From IMG/VR virus record IMGVR_UViG_3300029518_000091, positions 1 through 4,015 of that record: a DNA stretch of 4,015 nucleotides, one strand, 5' to 3'. Both the position numbers and the translations under genes were made by a program. Positions 2,700-2,798 of this stretch are shown here, piece after piece (the stretch's first letter is position 1; each line of letters begins with the position of its first letter). The stretch comes from a virus. Lineage: Duplodnaviria > Heunggongvirae > Uroviricota > Caudoviricetes. A model generated the notes under the pieces. It saw only the letters and a list, made by a program, of their open reading frames with translations, was not told the DNA's origin and did not search any database.

Positions 2700-2798
2700 T
2701 CACCACCAGCGTATCTGACCGATGAAATAACCGGAGGCCATAATCACAAACACCAGCCAGATAAGAATGAACTTCCAGGTGGATAATTTTTCAGCCAT
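2700..2798 (-). CDS. Candidate 32-aa single-pass membrane peptide between endolysin and Rz (function unknown)
   Basis: Internal ATG(2798) of track ORF 2700..2969, with GGAGA 9 nt upstream (GGGAGATTCGAGTG-ATG). Translation: MAEKLSTWKFILIWLVFVIMASGYFIGQIRWW, one hydrophobic helix flanked by short polar ends. Its TGA stop (2702-2700) is separated by a single nucleotide from the Rz ATG (2698), suggesting translational coupling. The longer 89-aa version would read through the terminator-like hairpin and is low-complexity, so the short form is preferred. Confidence 0.4.
   Translation of the reverse strand: MAEKLSTWKFILIWLVFVIMASGYFIGQIRWW

Follow-up and report, generated by a model that had tools for sequence, protein, structure and literature searches.

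The stretch of DNA analysed here (the window: 4,015 nucleotides (nt), positions 1 to 4,015 of the IMG/VR virus record IMGVR_UViG_3300029518_000091) represents the late region of a lambdoid prophage of the Qin-like or Shiga toxin (Stx)-phage type, read on the minus strand, and it raises the question of what a short hydrophobic reading frame is doing between the gene of the endolysin R and that of the i-spanin Rz. An earlier, sequence-only reading had taken this frame (2700-2798) for an unannotated gene of 32 amino acids (aa), encoding a protein with a single transmembrane (TM) segment and coupled to Rz by translation, and had suggested a lysis-timing accessory, antiholin-like or a modulator of spanin or endolysin, or a toxic small-protein moron. 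Judged from its conservation, the flagged frame of 32 codons is the C-terminal portion of a conserved 45-aa gene, which is part of a mobile cassette and for which we tentatively favour a role as a silenced, late-acting membrane peptide. The gene and its translation signals, including the Shine-Dalgarno (SD) sequences, are as follows:

2700-2837, minus strand: gene of a 45-aa small membrane protein, MFDFSKLIREIRVMAEKLSTWKFILIWLVFVIMASGYFIGQIRWW, with GTG start and the TGA stop included.
2700-2798, minus strand: 32-aa frame, MAEKLSTWKFILIWLVFVIMASGYFIGQIRWW, from ATG14 to the stop, a possible internal-start isoform.
2843-2848, minus strand: main SD, AAGGAG, 5 nt upstream of GTG 2837.
2807-2812, minus strand: internal SD-like GGGAGA (codons 9-10), 8-9 nt upstream of ATG14.

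All elements previously read from the sequence are present, namely the ATG at 2798-2796 with GGAGA upstream of it and, on the same minus strand, the TGA stop (2702-2700) that a single A (2699) separates from the Rz ATG (2698-2696). The reading frame is also open upstream of ATG 2798, back to GTG 2837-2835, and every divergent homolog begins at the position equivalent to this GTG, with the 13 N-terminal residues beyond the 32-aa version kept; the start codon is GTG or TTG in all 15 copies of the first homolog set. The main SD is stronger than that of the internal ATG, and GGAG(A/G)A is kept at its position in all copies. Of the proposed 32-aa gene, the frame and the internal ATG with its SD (conserved in 15/15) therefore stand while the boundaries do not, the conserved gene being the one of 45 aa from GTG 2837. 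A longer open reading frame (ORF) of 89 aa with a TTG start (2700-2969) was rejected, its upstream frame being closed in many homologs (L090, L092, L096) and its translation having to run through the leader hairpin described below.

Regarding annotation, the 45-aa product matches PHROG 6632, a phage protein family without assigned function, over residues 1-45 against profile positions 1-45 of 45 (E=1.2e-29, 102.9 bits), and corresponds to the PGAP coding sequence WP_000459345.1 ('hypothetical protein'), located at the same place in locus L001. PGAP calls this protein in roughly every second genome of a spread E. coli sample, the ORF is omitted by several gene callers, and 32-aa versions are also called in some databases (P0022, P0023). 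The gene can thus no longer be regarded as wholly unannotated, or as undescribed, since it is annotated in some genomes and its family is catalogued; the entries of this identical family ('hypothetical protein', 'phage protein') carry no function, regulation or cassette structure. Searches of the 45-aa protein against Pfam, NCBIfam and PADLOC models gave nothing above noise, the peptide string had no match in the full-text literature, which was incompletely covered, nor in the supplements of a Sakai Ribo-seq small-gene paper or of an Enterobacteriaceae microproteome preprint, and no account of the peptide or of a small RNA (sRNA) at its site was found in the literature (coverage incomplete). 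The gene family is already catalogued but uncharacterised, no description of the cassette architecture was found, and the cassette appears not to have been studied so far.

Homologs were collected by tblastn and by a scan of one genome per species. Full-length homologs with 47-98% identity were detected in phages or prophages of Enterobacterales, Pseudomonas and Azoarcus, representing 12 or more genera, and include copies in the Salmonella phages SPN3UB and SEN34, Pseudomonas phages, Trabulsiella, Citrobacter, Edwardsiella, Yersinia, Sodalis, Brenneria, Pantoea, Providencia, Pseudomonas reactans and an Azoarcus metagenome-assembled genome. The conservation check proposed along with the original claim bore out the frame, which is kept from E. 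coli to Pseudomonas and Azoarcus with ratios of non-synonymous to synonymous divergence (dN/dS) well below 1 (pairwise values of 0.03-0.27 among divergent copies; 15 synonymous and 5 non-synonymous differences between Brenneria and Pantoea). Across codons 15-45 synonymous sites are saturated and amino acids conserved, with codons of conserved residues varying freely (F23 is TTC in 8 and TTT in 7 copies, and G36 and R43 use four codons each), indels in the alignment occur in multiples of three only, and substitutions replace hydrophobic residues by hydrophobic ones, keeping the TM segment and a small-xxx-small pattern. Among E. coli-type viral copies, 80/81 are intact and their DNA variants show 8 synonymous and no non-synonymous codon differences, which is supportive only, the 81 copies having been chosen by similarity; a few decayed copies (P0025, P0027, P0031) are as expected in cryptic prophages. 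On this codon pattern the 45-aa frame is a genuine gene under purifying selection. Of 5,426 complete E. coli genomes, 899 (~17%) carry the cassette, and a profile search of 1.84 billion representative proteins returned 41 clusters only; the family may be small, or it may be under-called. Its signature is [ST]K-[LI]-[IV]-[RK]-E-x-R-x-M-x-x-[KR]-L-[PS]-x-W-[KR]-F, followed by the TM helix and often ending in (R/K)WW.

The single TM segment that had been claimed is likewise supported, prediction placing one at residues 24-42 (mean Kyte-Doolittle hydropathy 2.1), preceded by a conserved, amphipathic, K/R-rich flank of 22 residues and followed by just three residues (RWW). In an AlphaFold2 model (pLDDT 84) a kink separates two helices, at residues 4-17 and 20-44, and the small residues of the motif, G36...G40, are conserved. 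The predicted topology is that of a tail-anchored protein of the inner membrane with its N-terminus inside, and the strong conservation of the cytoplasmic helix speaks for a specific partner and against non-specific pore formation. In size and in having a single TM segment the protein resembles type I toxins (hydrophobic membrane proteins of <60 aa); above noise, Pfam and NCBIfam held no match to the described toxin families (Hok, Ldr, Ibs, TisB, ShoB, Fst, others). It has neither the periplasmic domain nor the lipobox by which spanins (Rz/Rz1/u-spanin) are recognised, no holin family was matched in Pfam, NCBIfam or PHROGs, and DUF2730 was not matched.

Regarding genomic context, the R/Rz junction is occupied in the window, in SPN3UB and in C. 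braakii, three lineages in which the stop of the small ORF lies 1 nt before the Rz ATG, which makes the proposed translational coupling to Rz plausible. Further copies follow endolysin genes of the families phrog_873, phrog_315 and phrog_181, which brings the endolysins concerned to four unrelated families; endolysin adjacency accounts for about 5 of 18 independent contexts, the rest being head, baseplate, tail or core modules. The latter comprise positions between a gpV-like spike gene and the next baseplate gene (SEN34, Pantoea, Dryocola), after a lambda tail-I-like gene or tail fibre gene (P. reactans, Sodalis), among tail morons (Pseudomonas phage YMC11/02/R656), between T7 gp14-like and gp15/16-like core genes (Azoarcus) and in a Mu-like head module (L107), and two copies (L108, L109) lie in an accessory region rich in ParE, RelB and HicB pairs. 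The cassette has the orientation of the surrounding late genes, except where its neighbours diverge. In the Qin prophage of K-12, rrrQ (R) overlaps rzpQ (Rz) with no insert, other prophages have different inserts at the R/Rz junction, and the cassette is, like a moron, an addition between genes that are neighbours in related phages.

Comparison of these contexts shows one unit, consisting of the hairpin, a ~40-nt spacer with the SD and the ORF, moving among the late operons of unrelated phages; by the same comparison the cassette would be self-contained and mobile, ~210 bp in length, inserted in this lambdoid prophage at the R/Rz junction, and it is, on the distribution of its homologs, not specific to lysis cassettes. 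The earlier suggestion of a spanin or endolysin modulator tied to S-R-Rz/Rz1 is not supported, given homologs in baseplate, tail, head and T7-like modules and after unrelated endolysins that are not of the signal-anchor-release (SAR) type, and a dedicated spanin or endolysin partner is unlikely. The toxic small-protein moron that had been offered as an alternative appears to fit best, the cassette being absent from K-12 Qin and present at many positions of phage genomes. Two further small hydrophobic frames were seen near homologs: in SPN3UB an unannotated 36-aa ORF (MSKRDVSALCFLMAAAVAISGNDGWGWLIFAGIIIL; L006 2737-2847) overlaps the endolysin stop upstream of the cassette, and in YMC11/02/R656 the next gene after the homolog encodes, by reading of the sequence, a 38-aa protein (MNAKDAGIVGKRLANAALILATGVAIASIIAAIGVVLG; L004 3171-3287).

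The leader and the 5' third of the ORF contain the elements on which a regulatory reading of the cassette depends:

2874-2906, both strands: G+C-rich hairpin with T-runs on both strands, from a terminator scan; 5' boundary of the mobile cassette.
2850-2864, minus strand: small stem-loop GACT...AGTC abutting the SD, suggestive only.
2822-2830, plus strand: candidate antisense extended -10, TGCTAAAAT, opposite codons 3-6, with the synonymous sites of codons 3-5 invariant.
2802-2807, plus strand: weak -35, TCGAAT.
2837-2913, plus strand: predicted cis-antisense RNA of ~77 nt, from sequence and fold.

In 20/20 copies examined, the larger hairpin precedes the ORF by ~40 nt, with an A-run on one side and a T-run on the other; 8 of its 12 pairs have double compensatory changes (RNAalifold), and it is stable on both strands with U-rich tails on both. 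A strand test by G-U against C-A pairs slightly favoured the sense strand (169 vs 158 paired cells). Because the Azoarcus hairpin makes a convincing terminator on the antisense strand only, despite this slight overall sense bias, the hairpin is read as a predicted bidirectional intrinsic terminator. The second stem, which abuts the SD or overlaps it, occurs at this position in the compensated versions CCTTG/CAAGG, CATG/CATG, CGTTA/TAACG, GACT/AGTC and CCTTCTG/CAGAAGG, and this covariation pattern is suggestive of a stem guarding the SD. Two Rfam hits in the window, to the rimP leader (27.5 bits against a cutoff of 47) and to BTnc005 (25 against 175), are below threshold, merely match the terminator hairpin and were put down to chance; no Rfam antitoxin family was found in the window.

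Within the ORF, synonymous divergence (pS) in codons 2-14 reaches only some one third to one half of the level seen in codons 15-45, and the codons GAT3, TTT4, AGC5, AAA6, GAG10, TTG11 and CGA12 are essentially invariant, whereas other Arg, Leu and Phe codons of the gene vary freely, a pattern that shows the 5' third of the ORF to carry what is best described as an extra constraint at the nucleotide level. On the opposite strand, TGnTAnnnT occurs at the matching place in 17 of 18 divergent copies, as against ~8% under synonymous recoding of the same proteins, and in the 18th copy it is shifted together with a longer N-terminus. The antisense motif persists despite differing residues (N-F-I-K in Azoarcus, N-S-S-K in L108, L-I-L-S in L107), and in a Pseudomonas phage a promoter scanner called TTCGCA-18-TAAAAT with a TG extension as its sole hit in 700 nt. 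An antisense RNA from this site would be expected to begin near the start codon of the ORF and to end at the hairpin; the RNA of 77 nt folds into two hairpins (-22.8 kcal/mol, z=-4.1), and the unpaired tail at its 5' end, CACUUUCUCC, is exactly complementary to the SD and start codon. Regarding the internal start, ATG14 is invariant in 15/15 divergent copies and is preceded at 8-10 nt by an SD-like core in 15/15, against a background of 6%, and two Pseudomonas copies regenerate this SD as GAGG from GAG-GTN, so that a 32-aa isoform from the internal start is plausible. The antisense-promoter and internal-start readings of the frozen codons are not mutually exclusive.

Several other candidates for regulatory RNAs or promoters were considered and set aside. 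A promoter-like site on the plus strand (2715-2744) has no conserved counterpart in SPN3UB and was attributed to chance, the sRNAs Pas, AgvB and AsxR of enterohaemorrhagic and enteropathogenic E. coli prophages map to the PR'-S moron site and not to R/Rz, and of the Hfq-CRAC peaks of strain Sakai, EcOnc10/11/12 lie downstream of Rz and EcOnc22/23/24 in a gap between tail genes I and J that holds an unrelated 39-aa ORF. As a separate observation, this gap in Sakai Sp15 (L104 7692-7931) is a second case of a late-operon small ORF with hairpins and antisense RNA: the 39-aa ORF (MKINVMELFF...) is bracketed by two hairpins, and EcOnc22 (~85 nt, Hfq-bound, with the homologues EcOnc23 and EcOnc24) is antisense to the late operon.

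Tentatively, and with a confidence a little short of even, the cassette is best explained as a mobile and tightly silenced package for a type I toxin-like or late-accessory membrane peptide, whose silencing would be overridden late in infection. The peptide would be harmful if mistimed and would be silenced at several levels, namely by the upstream terminator, the small stem at the SD, the weak GTG or TTG start of most copies and the cis-antisense RNA, which, transcribed over ~77 nt from the extended -10 in codons 3-6 and terminating at the two-way hairpin, would base-pair with the SD and the start codon. Once late transcription is strong (under Q antitermination in lambdoid phages), it would run past the terminator and its product would outnumber the antisense RNA, so that synthesis of the peptide would fall late in the infection, in the present prophage alongside Rz by translational coupling, with ATG14 perhaps yielding a 32-aa form without most of the cytoplasmic helix. 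It would most probably act in the membrane through helix-helix or helix-partner contacts, possibly as a membrane-perturbing late accessory (cell shut-down or permeabilisation) or as an exclusion factor. A bolder version, which we regard as possible but rather doubtful, is that the cassette represents a new class of antisense-RNA-guarded, promoterless type I toxin-like modules in late operons, with 45-aa and 32-aa isoforms tuning permeabilisation or shut-down; such a class would span temperate phages of the sipho-, myo- and podovirus types in Gamma- and Betaproteobacteria, silent in the lysogen and released by late transcription.

A number of observations weigh against this explanation. Regarding transcription, neither the interval from hairpin to ORF nor the minimal cassette as a whole was found to contain a conserved sigma-70-like sense promoter (a sense promoter-like consensus match was seen in L108 only, ~270 nt upstream), and the antisense promoter was not called by the promoter scanner in the window or in SPN3UB, its -35 matching at 3/6 positions only. 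A strong terminator inside late operons of the P2, Mu or T7 type, which to our knowledge are not antiterminated, would be expected to be polar on essential genes, and its efficiency in the sense direction is doubtful for that reason. Each version of the second stem, taken alone, was no better than shuffles in energy and stem length. The leader-sharing variants of 60 and 51 aa (described below) do not have the antisense -10, which weakens the generality of this element, and the R-Rz gap of Sp4, which carries a variant cassette, has no sRNA entry in the Sakai Hfq-CRAC table. The frozen codons might reflect instead an mRNA structure that sequesters both SDs, or they may result from selection on the translation-initiation region, and the N-terminal helix is unusually conserved for a non-specific membrane toxin.

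Among the alternatives, the one that survives best, although we consider it unlikely on balance, holds that the gene is a plain late-operon passenger, a holin- or antiholin-like or lysis-timing accessory with two starts (45 and 32 aa, with opposing activities) that is co-translated with Rz, the hairpin merely stabilising or punctuating the upstream mRNA and no antisense RNA being functional. The constant co-orientation with late genes, the position directly after the endolysin in 5 of ~18 independent contexts with four unrelated endolysin families, the stop 1 nt before the Rz ATG in three lineages, the conserved internal ATG with its SD and the repeated presence of small TM ORFs at the R/Rz junction of other prophages are all consistent with this. 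However, most contexts are baseplate, tail, head or T7-core modules rather than lysis cassettes, many lambdoid phages do without the cassette, holin families give no match, and the protein has only RWW past the TM segment in place of a charged C-terminal cytoplasmic tail; the frozen synonymous sites of codons 3-5 and the T-runs on both sides of the hairpin are moreover left unexplained.

Less probable still is a moron for lysogenic conversion or superinfection exclusion, which would be expressed at a low level in the lysogen and would block incoming phage DNA or modulate a host membrane protein by way of its conserved cytoplasmic helix, as HK97 gp15 does. The position, present or absent between otherwise adjacent genes, is typical of morons, several copies lie among tail-tip, baseplate or ejection-protein genes, and the highly conserved N-terminal helix suggests a specific partner. 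In two contexts the upstream neighbours are divergent, and the gene therefore cannot depend on an upstream operon there, the promoter-like site ~270 nt upstream in L108 being in line with this. Against such a role, the cassette contains no conserved sense promoter, its upstream terminator and partly occluded SD argue for silence in the lysogen, and PADLOC defence models gave no match. Finally, the idea that the frame is a non-protein by-product of a conserved RNA element (R 3' terminator, Rz leader or ribosome-binding site), open by chance, can draw on the strong nucleotide conservation of the leader and codons 1-14 and on the several gene callers that skip the ORF, but it is effectively refuted by the saturated synonymous sites and conserved amino acids of codons 15-45, the indels solely in multiples of three, the hydrophobic-for-hydrophobic substitutions with conserved TM segment and small-xxx-small motif, and the keeping of the frame in contexts without a downstream Rz, and is extremely improbable.

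The silenced package that we favour has partial counterparts among described systems. SymR, an RNA of 77 nt, is transcribed from a promoter that lies inside the symE coding sequence (PMC1891008), and the antisense RNA predicted here, also of ~77 nt, with a promoter within the ORF and covering SD and start, resembles it; SymE, however, is a soluble 113-aa AbrB-fold protein with its own LexA-controlled promoter, whereas the present product is a 45-aa membrane peptide in late operons with no recognisable promoter of its own, and its antisense RNA is a prediction. HokW, a type I toxin of the Stx2 prophage Sp5, is made on induction and aids phage release (PMC8621323). Like hokW-sokW, the cassette of a Stx-type prophage would encode a small inner-membrane peptide, but it differs from hok/sok in having no Hok similarity (no Pfam match), no conserved cysteines, no mok-like leader ORF and no fold-back 3' element, in the tail-anchored protein with almost no periplasmic part and in genomic position, and it differs from type I toxin-antitoxin systems generally in that their toxins have their own promoters, of which none is conserved here. 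The dual-start holins (lambda S107/S105, phage 21 S71/S68) are similar as small membrane proteins of the lysis region with two in-frame starts, each with an SD. Their starts are 2-3 codons apart, in contrast to 13 codons for the putative second start here, and the 45-aa protein has a single TM segment, no charged C-terminal tail and homologs mostly outside lysis cassettes; the window also has a separate S21-type holin upstream.

The releasin gp25 of Mu is a 99-aa DUF2730 protein, N-out/C-in, with an anionic cytoplasmic domain of 73 aa (PMC9239132). It shares with the present protein the character of a membrane-tethered, essentially cytoplasmic small protein encoded near SAR endolysin and spanin genes, but the latter has 45 aa, is N-in and has a C-terminal TM segment and a basic amphipathic helix, and its homologs also occur beside non-SAR endolysins or where there is no endolysin. 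A releasin-like role for SAR endolysins was considered and rejected, as the endolysins of other loci have, by inspection, no SAR-like N-termini and the topology is opposite to that of gp25. With morons, as reportedly described by Juhala and co-workers in 2000 and said to include lambda bor and lom and HK97 gp15, the cassette has in common that it is an extra gene between otherwise adjacent genes at many genome positions. The classical moron has a promoter upstream and a terminator downstream, in contrast to the cassette, which has its terminator upstream, none downstream and no evident sense promoter.

Carriers of the cassette include many Stx1- and Stx2-converting phages as well as phages of plant-, fish- and insect-associated bacteria. 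If the favoured explanation is true, the cassette would represent a new type I toxin-like architecture (a promoterless gene behind a two-way terminator, with an antisense promoter in synonymous sites) and a portable late function possibly affecting lysis timing, and hence the release of Shiga toxin and phage, and the 138-nt gene would be a clean case of overlapping constraints (protein, antisense promoter and internal start).

Other prophages carry different small frames at the same junction. In an ST131-type prophage (L105 1573-1901) a tail-anchored variant of 60 aa (MAKCKRILLRLTMKNG...LVIALKS) lies behind the shared leader, and a 43-aa TM ORF comes next, before Rz. In Sakai Sp4 the leader is followed by an upstream ORF of 8 codons (L110 5229-5300, minus strand; ATG GGT AGG GAG GTA CTT TCC CTG TGA), whose stop overlaps (GTGA) the GTG of a 51-aa variant that ends in AIRWW 1 nt before Rz, and of which only the product from the internal ATG is annotated (ECs_1094). 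Sakai Sp9, Sp10, Sp12 and Sp15 have an antirepressor and a 48-aa TM ORF at the junction. The ORFs of 43-48 aa encode an unrelated TM protein (MSDKLITLAKILCVIVG... / MGWLMISDKLITLVKSLCVLVG...) and end 7-11 nt before Rz. The 48-aa TM ORFs are located as follows:

L101 1625-1771: 48-aa TM ORF of Sakai Sp10.
L104 24749-24895: 48-aa TM ORF of Sakai Sp15.

The R/Rz junction is, on the sequences compared, a hotspot for several families of small membrane proteins, which pipelines annotate inconsistently. A segment of ~85 nt just 3' of the R stop (2913-2996, minus strand; aatattttgctgaaaaatg...ggataacacgaaatcctg...) is kept in Sakai Sp10, Sakai Sp4, the ST131 prophage and SPN3UB despite their differing R/Rz inserts, and is part of the R flank and not of the cassette.

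Regarding the rest of the window, close relatives in E. coli genomes and in Stx1- and Stx2-converting phages have matching annotation of the late region, R being named lysozyme or rrrQ in relatives, and the spacer from R to Rz is 298 bp. The genes are arranged as follows:

above 3930, minus strand: 3' end of the S21-type holin gene.
3581-3925, minus strand: YdfR-family/DUF1327 gene between holin and endolysin.
2997-3530, minus strand: endolysin R, a phage lysozyme with a hydrophobic, SAR-like N-terminus (PF00959, E=1e-23).
2231-2698, minus strand: Rz, the i-spanin (PF03245, E=2e-49).
2293-2478: Rz1, embedded within Rz.
1566-1907, minus strand: lipoprotein-like ORF with a TonB C-terminal domain (PF03544), downstream of Rz/Rz1.
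827-1192, minus strand: HNH endonuclease.

The YdfR/DUF1327 gene is a conserved passenger of the lysis cassette with no function assigned, and is present in K-12 Qin too. The TonB_C-like lipoprotein, named 'TonB family protein' in an ST131 prophage, may be the product of a lysogenic-conversion gene. Beyond the HNH gene, an apparent gene for the terminase small subunit, by reading of the sequence, runs on the minus strand from ~543 to 1 and off the window, and in the non-coding DNA between the HNH gene and its start the octamer GTTAACAT occurs five times on both strands (611, 628, 651, 719 and 725; span 611-732), against 0.09 expected; these repeats may form a putative binding array of the terminase or cos region.

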